Under the pieces are notes generated by a model, which searched no databases, was not told where the DNA came from, and saw nothing but the letters and a program-made list of their open reading frames with translations. DNA of 63,432 bases, the filler included, from Craspedostauros australis (Eukaryota), in assembly GCA_030167865.1 (NCBI GenBank). It is 13 parts of 13 records of this genome, joined end to end, with 100 filler letters (N's around TTAATTAATTAA, not from the genome) between each part and the next. Parts side by side here need not be neighbours in the genome. Positions count along the whole stretch, not along the records: positions 9,573 to 37,465 come from JALAGF010000370.1; 12 more parts are not named here. The stretch is one strand, 5' to 3'. Positions 2-37,566 of the stretch are shown here, one piece after another. The position numbers and the translations under genes are program-made. Position 1 is the stretch's first letter; each line of letters opens with the position of its first letter.

Positions 2-562
2 AATGTGGACATGGACATGGATGGTGAGGATCCAGCTTCCACCAAAGACCCAACGTCAACCTACATCTCCACATCCGCCAACCGCCTCATGAGCGGCAGT
101 TCCGCTTCAGCTGGAGTGGTCTTGGACAAAAGCCAATCCACTCATTCCGCCATCCTCCTCAACGAGACCAACGACACCAACGAGGACATGCCCACCCAGC
201 TCGTCTCGCGCACCAACTCCATCGAAATATCCATCACTCCCATGATTCCCACAACTGATCCGGAGCAAACCATCAATCAAGATCCACCGGTCAAGCAGCT
301 CACGCGAAAAGAATCCATCGGACCCTCCAAGGGATCCAGCCAGCATCTCGATCCGAAGAACGTGGTCGAGCAGGACACCGGCAACACCACAAGCATGCAT
401 TCTGTCGACATTGAGGCACAGACGGCCACCAACACCACCACAAAGCCGACGATGCAGCAGGAACCAGCATCGAACAAAAGCAACATCATGGTCCCCATCG
501 TCATCGTGGCTGTCCTCATCATCGGCGGTGGCATCGCAGCAGGCGTCGTGCTGGCGGGCTGA
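2..562 (+). CDS. 3' part of a low-complexity Thr/Ser/Pro-rich protein with a C-terminal transmembrane anchor (5' partial)
   Basis: Frame is open from the window start; ends in hydrophobic IMVPIVIVAVLIIGGGIAAGVVLAG followed by TGA. Confidence 0.55.
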   Translation, partial: NVDMDMDGEDPASTKDPTSTYISTSANRLMSGSSASAGVVLDKSQSTHSAILLNETNDTNEDMPTQLVSRTNSIEISITPMIPTTDPEQTINQDPPVKQLTRKESIGPSKGSSQHLDPKNVVEQDTGNTTSMHSVDIEAQTATNTTTKPTMQQEPASNKSNIMVPIVIVAVLIIGGGIAAGVVLAG

Positions 563-29013: not shown

Positions 29014-30603
29014 TCAGCACACTCTGGTCAGCGGACAGCCAAAGAAAACTTCCTCGACGCGATGCCATGACCTATGCCGGCCCATGGCAATTTGCCATCC
29101 CGCCTGCGCGATTCGGGCACGCTCTGTGTCATGCTCCAGGTAGTGCAAGATCAGACGCTCCAATTCCTGCACATCATGGAAGAAGACGATCGAGGTTTCA
29201 TTCTCCAAACCCCTCGGAAGCGTGAGCATCGTATCGTGCAACACCATCGCCCCACCGCTCAGTGCCTCCATCAATCGATAATGATCTTCCCACGCGTCGC
29301 GCTGCGAGACGACGACGATCTTGGACGACAGCAAAGCCTGGATGTAGTTGGACTGCGCGGTGTTGCGGCCCGTTCCATATCGTGCACCTTGCGTGCCGAT
29401 CATGATGCGGGCGTCCGACAGCGTTGTGTTGCTCATGGTCTGAAGGGCGCGCGACACATGCTGCCGGAACCTTCCGAAGTTGCGCGCGTCGTCGACTTCC
29501 CAGAAGTGGGCGACGTCGATGGGGCGCTGAACGACAGGCAGCGATGGACAGGAATGCGTTGCGTTGCTCATCACCATCTTGACGACAGGGTCAATCTGCA
29601 GATCCCTTTGCCCAGATCCTCGTGCACGAGACGCATCCAACTGTCCCAATTCGACTTCCATCTGCTCCACGACGTCGCTGCGCACGGCGTAAGTCATGGG
29701 AATGACGCGGCCCGGCGTCGCGGCGACCAATCGCTGCACGGGCGTTGCATCCACCTTGCCGCGCGTCAAGAGGCTGGTTGTACGATCAAAGTACCGACCC
29801 GTCACAATGGCCCGCACCGCCACGCGCACGCGGCGCAGCTTCGATCGGTTGCTGACATTGCCCAACTGGAAGGTCTGCGGGAACTGCGGCTTGAGATGGT
29901 CGGAATAATCAAAGAATAGCACATGCCAAGCGCGCTCGACACTGAGGTCGATCACCTTTTGGATCTTGCGGATGTGATGGTCCTTGTAGGATTCGGACAG
30001 CGGGATGGCCCAGACCTGTACCGTGGTGGCATTGAGGATGTGGTTCATCGAACAGGTCGTGGTGTTGGAGAGCTGGCACAGGAACTCGAGTTTGAGGTAC
30101 TGCGATTGCCGTATGCCGTCATAGAAGAAGTGGAACGTCTCACCCTCCAACCGCTTGGCATACATGAGACCAACGCGGACCGGTGCGGATGTCTCCGGCA
30201 CGACGTCGAGTAGCGAATCATGCTGCGCGGGGGAACAAGCGAAGCTTGATGACGGTCCCAATCCTTGCTTTGCAGTCGATGCGATCATATCGTGTCGCTG
30301 TGTCTCTGCTCCCAAAGAGTGTGCGTCGTTGGACTTCAGATCGTCCGTCTTCTTCCGATCCCCAAGACCGCCGTGAGCACCGCCGTGAGCACCGTCGTGA
30401 GAACCGTCGTGAGCACCGTTGGATTTGACAACGACATCGTCATGAACGGAGGGAGGTTGGAAGGTCAGATGCTCTTGTGCGATCTGCTGTTCCGCGCTGT
30501 GCTGAAATCGGCCGTGATACTGCAGCGTGTAAACAACCACGATGACAAGGACGGTGACAATGAGGATCTCCCTGCGTGCGTTCCTCTGCTTCGCCAATAC
30601 CAT
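29014..30603 (-). CDS. Type II membrane glycosyltransferase-like protein with C-terminal Glyco_trans_1_2/CgeB-type domain
   Basis: N-terminal TM; C-terminal YRLMEALSGGAMVLHD...ELERLILHYLEHDTERARIAQAG. Confidence 0.75.
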   Translation of the reverse strand: MVLAKQRNARREILIVTVLVIVVVYTLQYHGRFQHSAEQQIAQEHLTFQPPSVHDDVVVKSNGAHDGSHDGAHGGAHGGLGDRKKTDDLKSNDAHSLGAETQRHDMIASTAKQGLGPSSSFACSPAQHDSLLDVVPETSAPVRVGLMYAKRLEGETFHFFYDGIRQSQYLKLEFLCQLSNTTTCSMNHILNATTVQVWAIPLSESYKDHHIRKIQKVIDLSVERAWHVLFFDYSDHLKPQFPQTFQLGNVSNRSKLRRVRVAVRAIVTGRYFDRTTSLLTRGKVDATPVQRLVAATPGRVIPMTYAVRSDVVEQMEVELGQLDASRARGSGQRDLQIDPVVKMVMSNATHSCPSLPVVQRPIDVAHFWEVDDARNFGRFRQHVSRALQTMSNTTLSDARIMIGTQGARYGTGRNTAQSNYIQALLSSKIVVVSQRDAWEDHYRLMEALSGGAMVLHDTMLTLPRGLENETSIVFFHDVQELERLILHYLEHDTERARIAQAGWQIAMGRHRSWHRVEEVFFGCPLTRVC

Positions 30604-31040
30604 CAATGCCAGGAATGCCAGTAATGCATGCGGAGAAGAGAGCCAAGGCCATGCTATTGGTGCGAGCTATTGCGTATCGTGGAGCACTGATGGTACCCCT
30701 TGGGCAGTTTTGTGTTGTTGTGGCAGAGTTTCTGCTTCCTCTTCTTTGTGATTGTTTTTGCGCCTGTTTTCGTGGCTACTCATCGTCGCGTTTTGCTGTT
30801 GCGAACCCAAAAGTTGATTCCAACATGTCGCAGCCATCCTTCTCCGCCTCAATTGATCCACCCAGGCCCAACCTAGCCCAACCCAATCCAACCCAACTCA
30901 TAGACAGAGCACGTATGTATTATACTCCATGTTCTCCACTCTAATCCAAGTGCGTGAGGATAGTATTATATCATACAATTTAAGCAATTCTCTCTACTGC
31001 ATTGCTCCTCACTCTTATCGCATCTTCCGCAGAGTGCTTT

Positions 31041-34000
31041 TTAGTTGTCATCCTCATCGTCATCATCGTCATCATCGTTGTCGTTATCGAGAATGATGGG
31101 TGCGTCGACGTGATCGATGTCGGCTTGGAAGTTGACGACCCGACCGATACCGCGCGGTTGGTCGTCGCGCAACGTCAGCATCAGGTTGCCGGAGGATGCC
31201 TCCAGGAAGGCGTTGACGAAGTTGGTCGACTTCTCTTCGTCCTGATCGTACGAGAAGACGCTGAGATCGACGTGCTTGCGGCCGTCCCACACGACGACGA
31301 CGCTGCCGGATTCGTACAGGGATGCCACGATGCATCCCTCCATGTTGTCGTCGGTTTGCGGAAGCGCGTCACGGATCTCGGTGCCGGCCTTGGATACGGC
31401 GGAATTCAAAGCGCCGGCAAGCATGACTGCCGACACGACCACATCGTCACTCTTTGCTTCGAGCTGGAACACCGAGTGTCGGCCCAGCGGCTTTTGCTCC
31501 TCGTACTGCTGCAGTGCTTCGCTTGGGTCGTAATCGCCCGGCAGGTACTCACGTGGATTGTACTTGTCCTGCCACTGCCACTTGCCTCCCTGCAGCTTAT
31601 CAGCCTCGGCATCCAGGCCGACCGTCTCCTTCATGGTGGCGATCAGATCACCCAGGTGCAAGGTGGATTCCTTGTCTCCGATGGAGAGGATGCCGAGCTC
31701 GACGGAGCTGTCGCCGTCGAAGAGCTTGACCTGCGCGCGGCTGCTTGGATCGTTGTGATCGTCACGACGCATCTTCTCCAGCAGGCCTCTGCGCCATATC
31801 TCCGCTTTGTCGTCCATGAAGGAAATGCCGATGTAGTGTCGGCTCAGCAGGGCGTTTCGGTTCTTGGGGCTGCTCATGATAGAGAAGATGATCTTCGCGG
31901 TCTCACCCGTTGCGTTATCATCAATGATCAACGCAGTGATGGCAGATTCATCAACCTCCGCCAGGAGGTGCTTCGTCATGCTCTTCTCGCAAGCATACAT
32001 GCTGGCCGATCTCACTTCCACCGGTCCCGTGGTGTCAAGTCCGTCGCAAGAGTACAGCGTGACGACCTCGTTGATCTCTTCTCGCTGCATCATCACTTCG
32101 CGACTTGTGCATGGCTCGTCCTTGGATCCGCACAGGACAAGAGCCACGCCATCTTCCGCCCACAGCATCTTCTCGATCGTGTGGCTCAGGGCCTTGTCGA
32201 TAGTATCCTTGTCGATGGACTTGATCTCCTTCGCTTCTTCAGCGGCGATGTCGCAGTTGCGGCTCATGGCGTTCATCTGCGGACCCATGGTGCTCTGGTC
32301 TTGCTTCCATTCGGGGTATCCGAACATTCCGCCAACCACGATGCGGTAATTGGGGTGCGATCCCTTGGGACTGCCGGACAGGGCGATCAAGGCAGCGCGC
32401 AATGCCTCGAACTTGTTGAATGCGCCCCACAGGTGAGCATCGAACGCGACGTAGTTGTCTTCCTTCCAGAGTCGTGCCATGACGTATCCCTCCTTGAGCG
32501 GGATGATGAAGGCGTTGTCTGTTGTAGCCTTCGCAGCACCATCGACGGGCGTGAGTCCGACCTCTTCGACCGCCTTGATGACAGCATCCTGGACTGTGGC
32601 AGTGGAGGAAAGATCGATGGTGACCTGTTCGGCATCGATCACCATGAGCTGTCCTGCGGCCTTGGTCTGGTCGACGAGTTCTGGTTGCGGGCGGAGCTTG
32701 CACTTGCCTTGTTCGGTGGCATTGTTTCTGCGGTAGTCGTGAACGAGCTTGAGGCGGTCCAGGTCCTCGACGATTGGATCCAGCAGCTTCATCTCGATTC
32801 CGTGGTCCTTCGGCGGGAGGTGGAAAAAGTCCTTCTTGTTGCTGCCCAAAATCATGGACTGCGCACAGATGAGCGGCACGTCGTTGACGTGGATCTCCGC
32901 GGTGTAGTCGAAGATCTCGGACATCTTGTTGTGGTAGAATTCGTTCTTGACCATCACACCATCTGGCTTGAGGTAGAGAGACAGAGCCTCCAGGACATCG
33001 AGCTCGTCCGTCACGGTGAGAGAAGTGACGGTTTCGGAAAGATCGACAAGGACCATGTCGAAGGAGGCGGCATAGTCCTCCGGCAACAAAAGCAAACTCT
33101 TGGTGGCATCGCCGAACCACCATTCGACGCGATCATCGTCAAAGTGTGGCTGCGTGTGCATGCGCTTGAAGACATGACGCGTGACCTGCTGATCGATCTC
33201 CAGACCGACGACCAGCTCAAGCTCTGGGTATTTGAGGACTTCGTCCAGGATCATGGAGTCTCCGCCACCGATGAAGATGACGCGCTTGACGTTATCGACG
33301 TACTTGGCAGGGTAGTCGACGATGTACTCGTGGTAGTGCGGGCGGTAGTTGGAGCAGATCTGGATAGTGTCATCCAAATCCATGCAGACGTTCTGGTCCG
33401 AGCGACGGACCTGGTAATTCATGAGCTGGTAATGCGTCTGTCTGACGAAGGTGAGATCGTATCCCTCGAATTGCATGAAGGTGTGGATGTCGCAAGAGTT
33501 GGTGCTGTAATTCGTCGTATCCTTGTCATCTTCGAGGTCCTCGTAGGTGTCACCGACGACGCAGACACCATCGACAACATTTCCATCGAGGCATGCCTTT
33601 TCGTAGTCGCCATCGAAGTGTGAAATGAGTGCTGTCTTTATCGCGTCGAGGAATGCGGCATGCAACGCCCAGGTGAGCTTGAGCTCCTTCTCGGGGATGG
33701 CGTTTTCTCTTTCGTCGCTCCATTGCAGATTTCCAACGCGTTCGAGGCGCTGAACTTGCTTGCGAAGGAACTTCACTTGATGGACGTCGAGCTTGGGAAA
33801 GAAATAGTTCTTGTTGAGATCGTAGAAGGAGACTTTCACTGTGCCCGTCTCCTCCTCCTTGCTGATATCGATTCTGAACTTGCGATCGTGGAATGCCCAG
33901 CGTTGTGGGAAGTCCTCGATGAAACCATAGTCGCGGAAGAGTTCTGCGGGAAGGAACGATCGAGTAGATGATTTTCATTGGCGTTTGTGGTGTTTGCAAT

Positions 34001-34949
34001 GTTTGCGGAGGTCAAGATTGAGGCGGATGAGAATGCGGTGTGCGCGTGATGGTAGAAACGAAAAAGACATGGTCAGACTCATGGCAAATGCAAAAGATAG
34101 ATATGGGATGTATGCATGTATGAAAAGAGCAACAGAGTGCTCTTTGCATATCCGAGATCATTGCATCCACTCACCCGGAGTTCCGTAGACAGTATCACGC
34201 CCGCCGCATCCAGCGCAGAGGTTGTAGCTGGTGTGAATCGGTTGGCCGGCCTCGATCGGCTTGGTGGCGATGAGATCGTACTTGACCCCGCGCACGGACT
34301 CGCCGTCCGCATTATGCCATGGCGCGTTGCGATGGTTGTACATGTCAAAGAGTGGAATCATGAGGTCGTCGTCGGCATTCTGCACGACCATGAGAGCGAT
34401 TCGTTCTTCGAAAGGCGAGTGACCACCGCCGCAGGAGTTGTACCAATCATCCTCCAGCCAGCTGAAGAGATCGGTTGGTGGCAGATCTCCCACCACCTCC
34501 GTCAAAAACTCCACTCCGCCATCCGACCATGAGGACGGAAGATCGCCTTCTGGCAAATCCATGAGGTACTGGACGTATTCGTAATAGGTGGATTCCTTGC
34601 CCTTTTGGATTTCCGAAATGAGGTTGCGCACCAGGTCGCAGTTCAGTGGCACGGGCTCCGGATCCGCAGACGGCTCGCCGCCTTCACCAAAGGCCGTGAT
34701 GATGATGGACCATGGCAACGAGAACAGAACTTCGCCTTTCTCGATGCGTTCCGTCGCGAAGACACCTTCGTGTTCACCATCGTCGCCGCGGCGGATCTCC
34801 TGCTTGTTGGAGAAGAAGGCGCCCTTCTGACCGTCCACCCACTTCAGGAGGTTGTCCACGTGGACCTGCGATTCCGAGGAAGCGCTGGCGAACGATTGCG
34901 CGAGAATCACCGACAATCCCACCGACGAAACGATCGGTGAGAGCTTCAT
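31041..34949 (-). CDS. Signal peptide-SET domain-aminopropyltransferase (spermidine synthase-like)-AdoMetDC-like multidomain fusion, ~1225 aa; exons 34949-34175 and 33943-31041
   Basis: SET: GVFATERIEKGEVL, MIPLFDMYNHRN, PIEAGQPIHTSY, LFRDYGF. APT: YHE, RVIFIGGGD, GLEID, RVEWWFGDA, FDMVLVD. Two AdoMetDC-like segments (GQLMVID...LKEGYVMARLW...AFD; LGRHSVF...YESGSVVVVWD). GTGAGT...CAG intron gives TPELFRDYGF. Confidence 0.88.
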
Positions 34950-35910
34950 CTTGCGTTGCTTTCTCTCTCTCTCTCCGAAGACTATTGCTTTCGATCCCTT
35001 TCTATTGCTTCTGTTGTGCTCTACTGCGTTGCTCTGCTTGGATCTGGATTGCAGATACTACTGTGCTCTGCAACGACCAAGGGCAATGTTGCAATCCGTC
35101 CGAACTTGTGCTGTTGGAAGGACGAGATGGAGCGGAGTATGATTGATTTCGGTTTGTGTTGCTTGGTGGAGGGAGTTTCATGCTGTGCTGCGCTGCCATG
35201 TGTTGCGCAGAGCATGGTGTTGCATTGGTGTTGCATTGGGTTGCGTTACTTTTCCGAACAGTTTCCTTTGGTGGTGTGTTGTGTTTCTCAAAGACGAATG
35301 ATCGGGAACGCGAGATCTTAATTATCCCTATCGTCTACTTCCAAAAACCATGAATCTTGAAAGCTTCTTTCACTTGGAACGCTCGAGATAATCAGTTCAA
35401 CGGCCACAAATCTCAACGGATACATCTGCCTTGCTCTTTGGCGCGCGCCATGTGTATCGTGAGAGCGTGGCGATGTGCGCAACAAAACAACACGCATCAT
35501 CATACTCTCCTCTCCACTCATCTCATCAGCTCATGCTATGTTTGCACACTCCATGCTCGTAGAGTACCAACCATCCTGCCCCTGCGGACTATTATACTTC
35601 TGTGCAGGTGTGAGCAAGCACCTGCTGAAAGGCAAATCTCTCTTCCACTTCAGGGCCCCTGGCTCACTGGCGTAACAACGGATCATTGGAATGGTGCTCA
35701 ATTGAGGAACCCTCCGTTTTGTGAATGTAATGTATGCTCTACTGATATGTATTCGTATAGATCTGACTCACGCTCTCCATGTTCGTATTGACGAGCAGCC
35801 AACGCTCTCTTCGTATTCGATGGGGAGGAGTTATGCAATGGATTCCGCCGCTTCTTGCAGACGCGCTTGCACCTTATCAGGTATCGTGTCCGAATGATGC
35901 GCTTGCTTGT

Positions 35911-36585
35911 CTACGCATAGTTGTTGCAGTCAAGGACCGGGGCGTCGACGCCGGGGCACGAACCGGAATGGATCTGGTAGTACCCATGCCACATGCTGGA
36001 CTGCAGACCATGCGCAGCGTCCTCGTTCGCATGAAGGTGCTCGTGGATGACGAAGTCGAGGCATAGCGGCGTCAGCGGCCCGTATCCGTGATCTTCGCCT
36101 ATGTCAAGGCAGACTGTTTGCTGGCCGGTGATGGAGACCTGAGAGAAATCGCTGTACGGATGCGCTGCAGGGTGGATCTTCAGATCGCCGTGGATGACAT
36201 GCTTTGCTCCGATGGTTTCCATGCATGCCTCCAGGATGGAATCCGTGGTCGTCAAGCATTCTGGGCGAGCATCGCAGTACTCAAGTGAAATGGGCGGGCT
36301 TCCTTCCGATGTCTGGATGGTATTCTTGGCCGCAGGGTCCGATGGTACGAGGCTGTCCACGAAGGCTTGGCAATCGGTGAAGAAGTGCTTGAACTGGGCA
36401 TCCACAAACTCCTGCACGTTATCCGGAGTCAGGGGATACTCGTACGCTGGATGCAGAATCTCGCGAATGGTGCCTTCAGTCATCTCCCGGCGGACAGGTG
36501 AATGGTGCGAGGCAGAAATCTGTTTCCAACAGGCGATGCACACAATGGTGATGGCAATAGCGGTGGGTTTGATAGTGTCAAGCAT
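35911..36585 (-). CDS. Hypothetical secreted or signal-anchored Cys-containing protein
   Basis: Hydrophobic N-terminus (TAIAITIVCIACW); protein-like composition, ~224 aa. Confidence 0.55.
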   Translation of the reverse strand: MLDTIKPTAIAITIVCIACWKQISASHHSPVRREMTEGTIREILHPAYEYPLTPDNVQEFVDAQFKHFFTDCQAFVDSLVPSDPAAKNTIQTSEGSPPISLEYCDARPECLTTTDSILEACMETIGAKHVIHGDLKIHPAAHPYSDFSQVSITGQQTVCLDIGEDHGYGPLTPLCLDFVIHEHLHANEDAAHGLQSSMWHGYYQIHSGSCPGVDAPVLDCNNYA

Positions 36586-36610
36586 GATGCTGTGATTGTT
36601 GGTCGGTTGC

Positions 36611-36674
36611 AATGTAATGTAGTGTGATGTGATGTGATGTGATGTGATGTGATGTGATGTGATGTGATGTGATG
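36611..36674. repeat. (GATGT)n pentanucleotide microsatellite
   Basis: 9 perfect GATGT units plus degenerate flanking units, just upstream of the 36585 ATG. Confidence 0.95.
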
Positions 36675-37566
36675 AGTGTGCTTATTTGTTTGTTATCTTG
36701 TGTTCTTGACTTTTGACTTTGTTTTATGGGAGGATGGATGGATGGAAGAACATTTTTGAGAAGTTTGACGGCGGTGATCTAGTGATGTCTGCGGTAACGC
36801 AGTGATGGAGGTACCGAGTGATGTAGCGGTCCAGTGGTGGAGCAACGGGTTGCGGAAAATGTTGCAAACGGCGGAGCTGAAGGAAAAGTTGGGGCGAAAG
36901 AGTTACTTGTAACTGAGAGTGTCACTGGAACGAAATCCATCACTCACAGATGAAGTCGCTCGATTGCACATTGACGGACAACCGTAGTCACGAGACGCAA
37001 TGGTACGAGTAGAGAGGCAACATATGCTCCTCCACCAACGCATCCCAGCTAATTGCTCCGCTCAAGTCATCTTGAAGGAGGCCAAGTGACCGGTTGGTGA
37101 TTCAGACTGCTCTCTGATTCTCGAAGAAAAGTGTGATGCTCAACAATTAGGCTTCCCTCGCACATTTCAGCCTTGCATACGACCTCCAGGTCGCAGTTGA
37201 TGCACTCACGATAACACTAGTTGTGGAGTGTTTTTTGAGTTTTACTCGTGATGAGTCGTGATAAAGTAGACTAAANTAGAGCACACCNAAAACCATCCAA
37301 ACAACTGCTTATGATGTTATATCTCAACAACGCACCATTTAAAATTAAAACTAGACAGTTCATTCGGACGCTTGGCTATCTTTTATTCTGAATATCTTAG
37401 TTAAATTTGTATGAACTTTATTTTTAATGTCGTTTTGGCTTGCTGTCTGTCAGGTGGTGGGTGCANNNNNNNNNNNNNNNNNNNNNNNNNNNNNNNNNNN
37501 NNNNNNNNNTTAATTAATTAANNNNNNNNNNNNNNNNNNNNNNNNNNNNNNNNNNNNNNNNNNNNA

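Follow-up and report, generated by a model that had tools for sequence, protein, structure and literature searches.

A predicted two-exon gene of Craspedostauros australis encodes a probably lumenal member of the diatom SET-aminopropyltransferase-AdoMetDC-like fusion family

The gene was analyzed in a 63,432-nt stretch of Craspedostauros australis DNA (GCA_030167865.1; the window, along which all coordinates are given), where it lies inside part JALAGF010000370.1 (9,573 to 37,465). A mechanical open reading frame (ORF) scan lists two ORFs on the minus strand, at 34158..35057 and 31041..33974, and 34949 is the first in-frame ATG of the upstream one. The initial annotation had united these ORFs through a 231-nt intron into a protein of about 1225 amino acids (aa) with a signal peptide, a SET domain, an aminopropyltransferase (APT)-like domain, AdoMetDC-like segments, and an acidic tail, and all of these domains were found, as listed below.

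34175..34949, minus strand: exon 1 (start codon 34949-34947; 258 whole codons plus the G of the junction codon)
33944..34174, minus strand: intron (231 nt, phase 1, GTGAGT donor, pyrimidine tract, CAG acceptor)
31041..33943, minus strand: exon 2 (last 2 bases of the junction Glu codon, 966 codons, stop 31043-31041)
34881..34949, minus strand: predicted signal peptide, residues 1-23 (small-x-small motif ahead of Ser24)
34221..34766, minus strand: SET domain (PF00856), exon 1 residues 62-243 (Pfam E 1.8e-6; His-Arg-Asn motif and Tyr242)
33921..33935, minus strand: post-SET motif, Arg-Asp-Tyr-Gly-Phe, near-invariant across the family and located at the exon 2 start
32742..33449, minus strand: APT domain, exon 2 residues about 165-400 (Pfam Spermine_synth E 8e-18)
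32322..32660, minus strand: AdoMetDC-like half 1, exon 2 residues 428-540 (PF02675; Glu484-Gly485, Arg490, and Trp505 at processing/catalytic positions)
31587..32213, minus strand: class I methyltransferase/aminopropyltransferase-fold domain in predicted models, exon 2 residues about 577-785, between the AdoMetDC-like halves
31104..31493, minus strand: AdoMetDC-like half 2, exon 2 residues about 817-946 (Pfam E 0.017; family-invariant motifs; no conserved processing Ser)
31044..31088, minus strand: acidic C-terminal tail (last 15 residues all Asp, Asn, or Glu)

The donor reads G/GTGAGT, with 34175 as the final exon 1 base, and at the acceptor a tract rich in pyrimidines leads into CAG/AA, with 33943 as the opening exon 2 base. 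Exon 1 ends in phase 1, the junction codon (G+AA) encodes Glu, and the frames are joined (258 + 1 + 966 = 1225 aa); without splicing, the exon 1 frame meets a stop 5 codons past the donor. Between two flanking conserved motifs, the predicted junction residue was a single Glu in 42/52 aligned homologues and Asp in 4/52, that is, Glu or Asp exactly at the junction in 46/52. Among 80 related metagenome loci, the junction was uninterrupted in one ORF in 53 and interrupted exactly at this point in 11, 10 of which had a G/GT donor 86 to 196 nt upstream and an AG acceptor in the same phase. If the ORFs belonged to two genes, one for a short SET protein that stops within the intron and one for an APT protein whose start lies in exon 2, their separate listing in the scan would fit, but exon 2 is without any Met before residue 155, the frame across the junction matches the family consensus, the fusion is uninterrupted on 53 related contigs with an intron at the same position on 11, and the homologues P0030 and P0093 (source label, MMETSP transcriptome) carry SET and APT in a single protein; we give this arrangement next to no credence. 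The splice signals, the junction residues, and the intron-bearing and uninterrupted loci confirmed, at the level of sequence, the annotated intron and one two-exon gene with a predicted GT-AG intron and a predicted 1225-aa product.

A total of 212 homologues were found at an E value of ≤1e-3 among 8000 scored candidates, the best of them with 97 to 100% query coverage and 34 to 43% identity. Those with an organism name, a minority of the matches, were all diatom proteins (from Phaeodactylum, Nitzschia, Cylindrotheca, and Pseudo-nitzschia) with the same Pfam architecture. The C. australis protein sits on a long branch of the tree without a close orthologue (best identity, 43%). One relative, P0088, has an Agenet/Tudor-like insert (E 0.0068), and domains of this kind typically read methylated protein residues. 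The abstract of the 2011 description by Michael reportedly also refers to fusions of a different layout in which the AdoMetDC is catalytically dead, one of which includes a Tudor domain. The diatom multidomain polyamine fusions of that description (Michael 2011, FEBS Lett 585:2627, as paraphrased in excerpts of PMC3820600, PMC12029483, PMC6356823, and PMC12803844) likewise unite SET, bacterial-type AdoMetDC-like, and aminopropyltransferase domains in one diatom polypeptide and recall the Agenet/Tudor-like relative; compared via these paraphrases, the C. australis copy differs in that its identity to the proteins found does not exceed 43%. With SET, Spermine_synth, and AdoMet_dc in one polypeptide and full-length diatom homologues, its sequence places the protein in the diatom SET-APT-AdoMetDC-like fusion family, already described in 2011, as had been proposed. 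This class is mentioned in excerpts of PMC3820600, PMC12029483, and PMC12803844, and diatom APT fusions were still named as needing study in 2025 (excerpt of PMC12803844). The C. australis protein also has a diatom SET domain, as does the diatom-restricted SET set of 2020 (Mar Biotechnol 22:551), which, according to the paraphrases in excerpts of PMC11554505, PMC11151724, and bioRxiv 10.1101/2020.11.23.393678, was proposed to methylate cell-wall proteins and long-chain polyamines (LCPAs). No functional assay of any fusion-family member was found in the literature searched.

The SET domain scored 28.8 bits (Pfam cut-off, 22.4), and the family profile matched SETD3 (E 1e-4), LSMT (2.4e-4), and SETD6 (1.1e-3). 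SETD3, Rubisco LSMT, and SETD6 are the best solved relatives, and their His-Arg-Asn and Tyr motifs are present in the C. australis protein. The His-Arg-Asn motif was conserved across the homologues (H 52/52, R 51/52, N 52/52), as were Asn205 (42/52), His206 (52/52), Tyr242 (47/52), and the post-SET Tyr (exon 2 Tyr5; 50/52); the roles of the Asn-His motif and the active-site tyrosines are known for SET methyltransferases. The post-SET motif (R 51, D 51, Y 50, G 51, and F 49 of 52) becomes attached to the SET domain because splicing joins exon 2 to exon 1, and when the family profile is matched to LSMT, the alignment extends to profile position 300-301, beyond the junction at about 271-286. The LSMT substrate-binding lobe gave no match, and no Pfam domain was found in exon 2 residues 1-154. 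We classify the domain as a SETD3/LSMT/SETD6-class methyltransferase domain that looks catalytically intact; it differs from these relatives in having a signal peptide and in being fused to polyamine-pathway domains.

The APT domain scored 65.1 bits against PF01564 (gathering score, 22.9). Against the equivalog-level models, it reached 75.3 bits for NCBIfam PRK00811 (E 4.7e-21; cut-off, 260) and 57.2 bits for TIGR00417 (cut-off, 249.55), both far under the cut-off; with similarity to SpeE failing at this level, the domain is classed as a divergent member and not as an orthodox spermidine synthase. Its motifs were located by alignment to solved plant and Plasmodium spermidine synthases, and spermidine synthase structures give the roles of the Gly-Gly-Gly-Asp loop (cofactor), Glu-x-Asp, Gly-Asp, and the catalytic-loop Asp. 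These four elements, the last being the first Asp of Asp-x-Ser-Glu, were present in 52/52 homologues (the second Gly of the triplet in 51/52). Such invariance of the cofactor and catalytic motifs argues for retained catalysis, and the APT domain looks catalytically intact. Glu takes the place of the spermidine synthase Asp at the second acidic position of the catalytic loop in the C. australis domain, and the amine substrate is therefore not readable from the sequence.

In the C-terminal half, Pfam AdoMet_dc (PF02675) matched two stretches (E 2.1e-6), the second of which alone (the last 172 aa) gave an E value of 0.017 over profile positions 6-101 of 107 and carries the family-invariant motifs Trp-Asp-Gly-Arg-x-His and Leu-Arg-Asp-Asp-x-Pro-Arg-Gly. 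The half 1 profile matched PDB entries 2iii (E 0.0035) and 1tlu and 1tmi (E 0.004), and half 1 aligned with 1vr7_B at Z 13.8 (VIA-align; rmsd 2.5, 107 residues aligned). When the C-terminal half was modeled (pLDDT 89, pTM 0.75), human AdoMetDC 1msv_B spanned both halves (model residues 10..528; Z 14.2, 223 aligned by VIA-align), as did chain F of the T. brucei AdoMetDC/prozyme entries (Z 12.3-12.5 over model residues 10..527). An AdoMetDC fold in this half, which had been set beforehand as a test, was thus found in the matches to 1vr7_B and 1msv_B, and the two halves are predicted to pack into a single eukaryote-like AdoMetDC sandwich. The two AdoMetDC-like domains of the initial annotation accordingly stand as Pfam segments but not as two enzymes, forming one AdoMetDC-like fold in the model.

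Ser63 of T. maritima AdoMetDC (1tlu; Ala63 in the S63A entry 1tmi) aligned to the family-invariant Gly485 of half 1, and its His and Cys, residues that act in processing and decarboxylation, aligned to the invariant Arg490 and Trp505. Glu-Gly at the processing site was invariant in a 13-row family alignment and nearly invariant in another. At the aligned processing position of half 2, a conserved Ser was absent, the column being Gly or variable, and the NCBIfam AdoMetDC model gave 22.5 bits versus a cut-off of 75.65. Formation of a pyruvoyl enzyme requires this serine. The AdoMetDC-like halves are to all appearance catalytically dead; since the pyruvoyl-forming Ser is missing in both, the protein would be unable to make its own dcSAM and would therefore not be a self-contained LCPA synthase.

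Between the halves, the model places a further domain, which the initial annotation had missed. It aligned with 3gjy at Z 9.7-9.9 (171-175 residues; VIA-align) and with 4dzr at Z 9.4-9.5 (146 residues), and the 24 chains with a Z of at least 8 were methyltransferases or aminopropyltransferases except for the rabies virus L protein and a designed COMT-domain fusion; aminopropyltransferases and other methyltransferases were tied as best matches. No Pfam match was found for this domain, and comparison of its profile with that of the APT domain found nothing (P 0.22). With strand positions taken from predicted secondary structure, it showed no conserved glycine-rich cofactor loop, a conserved Val-x-Cys-Gly-x5-Cys after the first strand, and no conserved acid after the second. 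In the model, it looks like a degenerate methyltransferase/aminopropyltransferase fold.

Eukaryotic AdoMetDC (1msv) and the T. brucei AdoMetDC/prozyme (5tvm) share with the C. australis module the four-layer sandwich made of two bacterial-like halves (223 and about 193 residues aligned, respectively), but the module is without the processing serine and has ~280 residues, including the whole extra domain, between its halves; no sequence-level match of the module to the eukaryotic AdoMetDC family was seen. The T. brucei prozyme, a paralogue without activity, has a regulatory function. Half 1 resembles bacterial class 1 AdoMetDC (PF02675; 1tlu, 1vr7, and 2iii) in fold and sequence family (Z 13.8; profile E 0.0035-0.005) but has Gly, Arg, and Trp in place of Ser, His, and Cys, and in contrast to the bacterial AdoMetDC-spermidine synthase fusions, the APT domain comes first in the C. 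australis protein. Foldseek ranked animal spermine synthase 3c6k first for the C-terminal half (E 6.7e-6); in this protein, a dead bacterial-type AdoMetDC-like domain is likewise fused to an aminopropyltransferase-fold domain. In that enzyme, the dead domain is single and N-terminal and is followed by the active APT domain, whereas in C. australis the active-looking APT domain precedes the module, there are two dead halves, and the Rossmann-fold domain within looks degenerate. According to an excerpt of PMC12803844, the AdoMetDC-derived domain of animal spermine synthase has lost its activity yet is essential for dimer formation and activity, and in the human enzyme it is structurally indispensable.

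The N terminus begins with charged residues and continues with a hydrophobic core of 15 residues and a small-x-small cleavage motif, and its Kyte-Doolittle maximum is 2.40 within the first 40 residues; the signal peptide call is one of hydropathy and cleavage motif only. A comparable hydrophobic N terminus was present in 48/58 full-length homologues that begin with Met. The gap from the signal peptide to the conserved domain is only about 10-14 residues, and 15 of the 17 cysteines were kept in at least 49/52 homologues. Alternative cleavage 3 residues earlier would leave Phe at +1, a feature that resembles diatom plastid presequences and that was absent from the homologues of the C. australis protein. 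Similar but nonhomologous acidic tails occur in several homologues. We regard the protein as probably a soluble, lumenal protein of the secretory pathway; the lumenal location given in the initial annotation fits both the predicted signal peptide and the 15 family-conserved cysteines.

The explanation that we favor, with somewhat better than even confidence, is a lumenal fusion enzyme that aminopropylates and methylates silaffin-like lysines or polyamine chains with imported cofactors and includes a dead scaffold module. In the lumen of the ER, the Golgi, or the silica deposition pathway, the APT domain would move aminopropyl groups from dcSAM made elsewhere to lysine epsilon-amines of silaffin-like proteins or to growing polyamine chains, and the SET domain would N-methylate neighboring lysines or the new amines with SAM. 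The dead AdoMetDC/methyltransferase-fold module may be a structural or ligand-holding scaffold, by analogy to the dead N-terminal domain of animal spermine synthase. It speaks against this explanation that lumenal APT and SET domains would require dcSAM and SAM inside the secretory pathway; we know of no transporter of either into it. Excerpts of PMC3820600 describe silaffin lysines as paired or as bounding a short tetrapeptide motif, with one lysine aminopropylated and its neighbor dimethylated, and report ER signal peptides on silaffin-like proteins. In Seminavis, expression of 24 diatom-specific SET genes and of 8 AdoMetDC-APT genes is highest at cytokinesis, together with that of cell-wall genes (excerpt of bioRxiv 10.1101/2020.11.23.393678). 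A role of the C. australis protein in LCPA or silica formation is what we infer.

The module could instead be a functional unit, with one AdoMetDC-like pocket, rebuilt from the two dead halves, as a ligand site for dcSAM, MTA, a polyamine chain, or a phosphorylated silaffin segment and the protein as a processive, chain-length-setting lysine-polyamine machine. The polar motifs of the C-terminal unit (the two of half 2 and Glu-Gly...Arg...Asp...Trp) are family invariant and would make up this site; we hold this reading to be doubtful, and if true it would mean a processive modification machine and not a simple bifunctional transferase. An enzyme that elongates and N-methylates free LCPAs only, with imported dcSAM and SAM and with protein lysines untouched, is possible, if on balance unlikely: the APT domain is nearest to small-molecule polyamine aminopropyltransferases, and many diatoms are rich in free LCPAs (excerpt of PMC3820600), but the SET domain belongs with SETD3, LSMT, and SETD6, and the solved enzymes of this class have protein side chains as substrates according to PDB entry titles, and P0088 carries its Agenet/Tudor-like insert.

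All three domain types are present for a self-contained LCPA synthase and methylase, in which the AdoMetDC-like domains would make dcSAM, the APT domain would elongate free polyamines, and the SET domain would methylate them, and excerpts of PMC3820600 and PMC12029483 cite the family as potentially synthesizing and N-methylating LCPAs. Set against this are the family-invariant Gly, Arg, and Trp at the Ser, His, and Cys positions of half 1, the missing Ser of half 2, and the NCBIfam score under its cut-off; the one-polypeptide synthase with its own decarboxylase, as first annotated, has to be given up on the processing Ser, and we consider it highly improbable. A methyltransferase or pseudoenzyme of the secretory pathway with no connection to silica, modifying, for example, other cell-surface proteins with the APT domain as a binding module only, seems to us improbable. 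The family is not tied to silica by experiment, and the C. australis protein is on a long branch, but the APT motifs are invariant in 52/52 homologues, all homologues with an organism name (the named minority) are diatom proteins, and related SET and AdoMetDC-APT genes share the cell-wall gene peak in the Seminavis preprint excerpt.

LCPAs and modified silaffins control diatom silica patterning, and no demonstration of the enzymes that build LCPAs or that modify silaffin lysines with aminopropyl and methyl groups was found in the literature searched. The favored fusion enzyme, with SET and APT domains in one protein, would be a simple explanation for paired silaffin lysines of which one is aminopropylated and the neighbor dimethylated. 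The gene is a divergent, cleanly delimited addition to the main candidate family, and it sets limits on what such proteins may do: this one would make no dcSAM, it is probably lumenal, and its methyltransferase and aminopropyltransferase domains look catalytically intact. The predicted AdoMetDC-like sandwich with its inserted methyltransferase-fold domain would offer a concrete expression construct and a pocket to probe.

A stop-to-stop scan returned the coding sequence as two minus-strand open reading frames, and Pfam recognized three families within their joined product (exon 1, 34949-34175; exon 2, 33943-31041), as follows.

34158..35057, minus strand: upstream ORF (stop-to-stop scan)
31041..33974, minus strand: downstream ORF (stop-to-stop scan)
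Exon-1 residues 62-243, minus strand: SET domain (Pfam E 1.8e-6; 28.8 bits, cut-off 22.4)
Exon-2 residues 202-334, minus strand: Spermine_synth, the aminopropyltransferase (APT) domain (Pfam E 8e-18)
Two stretches of exon 2, minus strand: AdoMet_dc, the bacterial-type SAM decarboxylase (AdoMetDC) family PF02675 (Pfam E 2.1e-6)

The initial annotation had joined the two ORFs through one 231-nt intron into a 1225-aa protein with SET, spermidine-synthase-like and AdoMetDC-like domains; the intron was borne out by the reading frames, by the junctions of homologues and by metagenome loci, and Pfam recovered all three kinds of domain. The predicted start codon, the earliest in-frame ATG in the upstream ORF, is at 34949, and the inter-ORF sequence reads, on the minus strand, CCG G/GTGAGT, a pyrimidine tract and CGCAG/AAC TC (slashes marking splice sites), with the donor after base 34175 and the acceptor before base 33943. 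Since base 34175 opens a codon in the upstream frame, and base 33943 is the middle base of one in the downstream frame, splicing creates a Glu codon (G + AA) and keeps both frames, giving a product of 258 + 1 + 966 = 1225 residues. When left unspliced, exon 1 meets a stop five codons past the donor, and exon 2 lacks any Met upstream of residue 155.

A search with the exon-2 protein yielded 212 proteins at E <= 1e-3 among 8000 candidates scored, the closest being 43% identical. All matches with a named organism were from diatoms (Nitzschia inconspicua, Phaeodactylum tricornutum, Cylindrotheca, Pseudo-nitzschia and Bacillariaceae MAGs), and many carried the precomputed Pfam set SET + Spermine_synth + AdoMet_dc; domain set and diatom homologues together uphold the proposed membership of the diatom SET/APT/AdoMetDC fusion family. 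When the products of both exons were aligned to 52 full-length homologues, the junction was occupied by a single Glu in 42 and by Asp in 4, flanked by Tyr-Gly-Thr-x at the end of exon 1 and x-Phe/Leu-Arg-Asp-Tyr-Gly-Phe at the start of exon 2. In 80 loci obtained by scanning metagenomes with the family alignment, the junction lay uninterrupted within one ORF in 53 and was interrupted exactly at this point in 11 (among them L064, with two tandem copies); 2 loci started at the junction and 14 had no motif match. Ten of the 11 with an interruption had an upstream exon that ended in Tyr/Phe-Gly-Thr-x and was followed by G/GTA, with an AG acceptor 86-196 nt downstream, ahead of the second base of the Glu/Asp codon; these relatives thus hold the same phase-1 intron, with a G/GTA donor versus G/GTG in the window. 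The upstream exon of the eleventh, L032, was not found with the pattern used. Contigs with an uninterrupted junction encode the spliced form, and we regard the gene model as established on this comparative evidence.

Two public gene models (homologues P0024 and P0100) have 25-29 odd extra residues, starting with Gly, exactly at the SET/APT junction, probably because the conserved intron was left unspliced in these annotations. On a 10.3-kb metagenome contig, the post-SET motif occurs twice, ~5.3 kb apart (L064:4093 and L064:9361), each time preceded by intron-like sequence, and the contig thus bears tandem paralogues from this gene family. A tblastn search of the window revealed no second copy of the gene.

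For the SET domain, the family profile matched the solved structures of SETD3 (E 1e-4), Rubisco LSMT (E 2.4e-4) and SETD6 (E 1.1e-3), SET enzymes that act on side chains of non-histone proteins. The motifs of this domain look intact: His206-Arg-Asn208 is kept in 52, 51 and 52 of the 52 homologues, respectively, Tyr242 in 47, and the Arg-Asp-Tyr-Gly-Phe stretch, right at the beginning of exon 2, in 49-51. The match to LSMT reaches profile position ~300, beyond the junction at ~271-286, so that SET-type homology crosses the splice site, which is a further reason for a single gene.

The N-terminus consists of Met-Lys, a hydrophobic core of 15 residues and a small-x-small motif ahead of Ser24, and 48 of the 58 Met-initiated homologues that reach 1150 aa or more have a similar hydrophobic N-terminus. 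Cleavage three residues earlier would leave Phe at +1, a mark of diatom plastid presequences; this Phe is absent in the homologues, and the sequence leaves no space for a transit peptide, the conserved mature domain starting within a few residues of the hydrophobic N-terminus. Fifteen of the 17 cysteines are kept in at least 49 of 52 homologues, a conservation that would fit disulfides in an oxidising lumen.

The APT domain scored 75.3 bits against PRK00811, an NCBIfam polyamine APT model (equivalog cut-off, 260), and scores so far under equivalog cut-offs indicate a divergent APT and not an orthodox SpeE. It aligned with solved plant and Plasmodium spermidine synthases over the Gly-Gly-Gly-Asp loop, Glu-x-Asp, Gly-Asp and the catalytic loop, positions that are identical in all 52 homologues (51 for the second Gly of the triplet). 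The catalytic loop reads Asp-Ser-Ser-Asp-Pro in the solved enzymes, versus Asp-Leu-Ser-Glu-Thr here. Its first Asp, the catalytic base in spermidine synthase structures, is kept, as is the Asp of the glycine loop, which excludes the carboxylate of SAM, so that the enzyme uses decarboxylated SAM (dcSAM); only the second acid of the loop is changed, from Asp to Glu. From these motifs we infer a working dcSAM-dependent transferase, the amine substrate of which is not readable from sequence.

The two AdoMetDC-like segments (half 1, exon-2 residues 428-540; half 2, residues ~817-946) were both present, and their fold was matched in the predicted structure; they are predicted to form one sandwich, however, and the AdoMetDC catalytic residues are missing. 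Scanned separately, exon-2 residues 415-524 (most of half 1) matched Pfam at E 4.6e-4 and the last 172 residues (with half 2) at E 0.017 (profile positions 6-101 of 107), and there was no Pfam match in the 270 residues between these two stretches or in the 154 residues past the junction. Structure prediction of the C-terminal module (exon-2 residues 415-966) from a 103-row alignment gave a mean pLDDT of 89 and a pTM of 0.75. In Foldseek, the best match of this model was human spermine synthase (3c6k, E 6.7e-6), followed by the bacterial AdoMetDCs 1tlu, 1vr7 and 2iii (E ~5e-5). In VIA-align, the best match was the human AdoMetDC proenzyme (1msv_B; Z 14.2, rmsd 3.8, 223 aligned, model 10..528), and Trypanosoma brucei AdoMetDC/prozyme (chain F in three entries) reached Z 12.3-12.5 (192-194 aligned, model 10..527), whereas Thermotoga maritima 1vr7_B covered model 13..126 only (Z 13.8, rmsd 2.5, 107 aligned). 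Since a bacterial protomer covers one segment and the two-lobed eukaryotic enzyme both, the segments are predicted to pack as the two halves of a single AdoMetDC-like sandwich.

A 13-row profile of half 1 matched the Aquifex and Thermotoga AdoMetDCs (E 0.0035-0.005). In this alignment, Glu-Ser of wild-type 1tlu fell on the invariant Glu484-Gly485 of half 1 (the same Ser being Ala in 1tmi, entitled an S63A non-processing mutant), the His five positions further along on the invariant Arg490, and the Cys of the Thr-Cys-Gly stretch on the invariant Trp505. Half 2 has Glu-Ser-Gly-Ser at the processing site, in columns that are variable across the family save a nearly invariant Gly, which a weak profile-profile alignment (probability 11%) put at the Ser63 position. 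Without the serine there is no pyruvoyl group, and the protein therefore cannot decarboxylate SAM; the self-sufficient synthase implied earlier does not hold, and dcSAM would have to be supplied from elsewhere. Strong conservation and new polar motifs in both halves (in half 2, Trp-Asp-Gly-Arg-x-His-x-Asp and Leu-Arg-Asp-Asp-x-Pro-Arg-Gly) argue for a retained, different role. Single-sequence phmmer of either half against the PDB gave chance matches only (an ankyrin design, E 0.54; sarcosine oxidase, E 0.014), and the half-2 family profile matched no AdoMetDC chain there. When compared as profiles, the two halves matched weakly though in register (probability 23% and 11%; P 9e-4 and 0.003), and the assignment of half 2 hence draws on the Pfam match at E 0.017 and the predicted structure.

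Model residues 163-370, between the halves, matched spermidine synthases and other class-I methyltransferases (Z 8.5-9.9). Folded alone (pLDDT 87), this inserted domain matched the probable spermidine synthase 3gjy (Z 9.7, 171 aligned) and the PrmC methyltransferase 4dzr (Z 9.5, 146 aligned); the 24 chains at Z >= 8 were methyltransferases or APTs, except for the rabies virus L protein and a designed COMT-domain fusion, and Foldseek agreed. As APTs and other methyltransferases tied structurally, we named it a methyltransferase/APT-fold domain. That it is a copy of the APT domain found no sequence support (profile comparison P 0.22), and structure cannot discriminate. By predicted secondary structure, a conserved Val-x-Cys-Gly-x5-Cys, not a glycine-rich loop, follows its first strand, and no conserved acid follows the second; we infer that cofactor binding may have been lost.

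The 552-residue module matched 579, 457 and 269 representative clusters at E <= 1e-3, 1e-10 and 1e-30, respectively. Among the 150 matches listed, the module match ended near the C-terminus and no stand-alone module was seen; all 50 listed proteins of < 700 aa began within the APT domain or the module and thus look like fragments. In seven long relatives, Pfam found SET and Spermine_synth in all and AdoMet_dc (E <= 0.01) in five. One relative, P0088, has an Agenet (Tudor-like) match instead (E 0.0068, below cut-off; residues 1107-1155), in an insert just before half 2, which hints that the module adjoins a reader of methylated residues. Another, P0078 (1643 aa), has an N-terminal extension of 400-450 residues and a SET match in two stretches (Pfam E 1.8e-14); this relative may hold an additional domain or another SET-like segment. 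In a midpoint-rooted quick tree, the window protein sat on a long branch without a close orthologue, sister to a clade including the Phaeodactylum protein and P0088.

The neighbouring frames were as follows; apart from the downstream neighbour, the four neighbouring ORFs scanned matched no Pfam family.

29017-30666, minus strand: downstream neighbour, 550-codon ORF (Glyco_trans_1_2, E 5.6e-16; N-terminal hydrophobic segment)
35914-36681, minus strand: upstream neighbour, 256 codons (hydrophobic N-terminal segment, many Cys and His, no Pfam family)
30984-33623, plus strand: 879-codon open frame antisense to exon 2 (no Pfam family; repetitive, hydrophobic-looking translation)

The downstream neighbour begins 375 bp past the stop codon of the fusion gene on the same strand, and its product may be a Golgi-type glycosyltransferase. 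The antisense frame most likely arises as a side effect of codon bias in the fusion gene.

According to PMC3820600, silaffin-like proteins carry ER signal peptides, and silaffin lysines lie in pairs or bound a short tetrapeptide motif; one of them bears aminopropyl or N-methyl-propylamine units, and its neighbour is epsilon-N,N-dimethylated. In the mechanism we propose, the fusion protein would enter the secretory pathway, where silaffin-like proteins are modified, and its adjacent APT and lysine-type SET domains would be a natural candidate for writing the paired lysine pattern; the same enzyme might in addition elongate polyamine chains and methylate them. The dead AdoMetDC sandwich and the inserted domain would serve as a scaffold or ligand holder. 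Animal spermine synthase offers a precedent for a dead AdoMetDC domain with a structural role: according to PMC12803844, it derives from a bacterial AdoMetDC-APT fusion, and its AdoMetDC-derived domain has lost activity yet is essential for dimer formation and activity.

Passages in PMC3820600, PMC12029483, PMC6356823 and PMC12803844 credit Michael (2011, FEBS Lett 585:2627) with describing the diatom fusion class, and those in PMC12803844 (December 2025) state that diatom APT fusion proteins, 32 of them in Nitzschia inconspicua, still need study. Diatom-specific SET methyltransferases are termed BacSETs (Nemoto 2020, as quoted in citing passages), and in Seminavis, expression of 24 diatom-specific SET genes and of 8 AdoMetDC-APT genes peaks together with that of cell-wall genes (bioRxiv 10.1101/2020.11.23.393678). 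A literature search that covered only a minority of subscription journals found no functional test of any family member. The 2011 abstract reportedly describes further fusions of a different configuration, in which the AdoMetDC is catalytically dead and one of which includes a Tudor domain; it is said to propose that such fusions methylate lysines and add aminopropyl units to silaffins. The family studied here, including the insert of P0088, fits that dead-AdoMetDC description. We place the window gene in a known but uncharacterised family, as a new and divergent member; two predicted details, the single AdoMetDC-like sandwich of two dead halves and the inserted methyltransferase-fold domain, may add to the published description.
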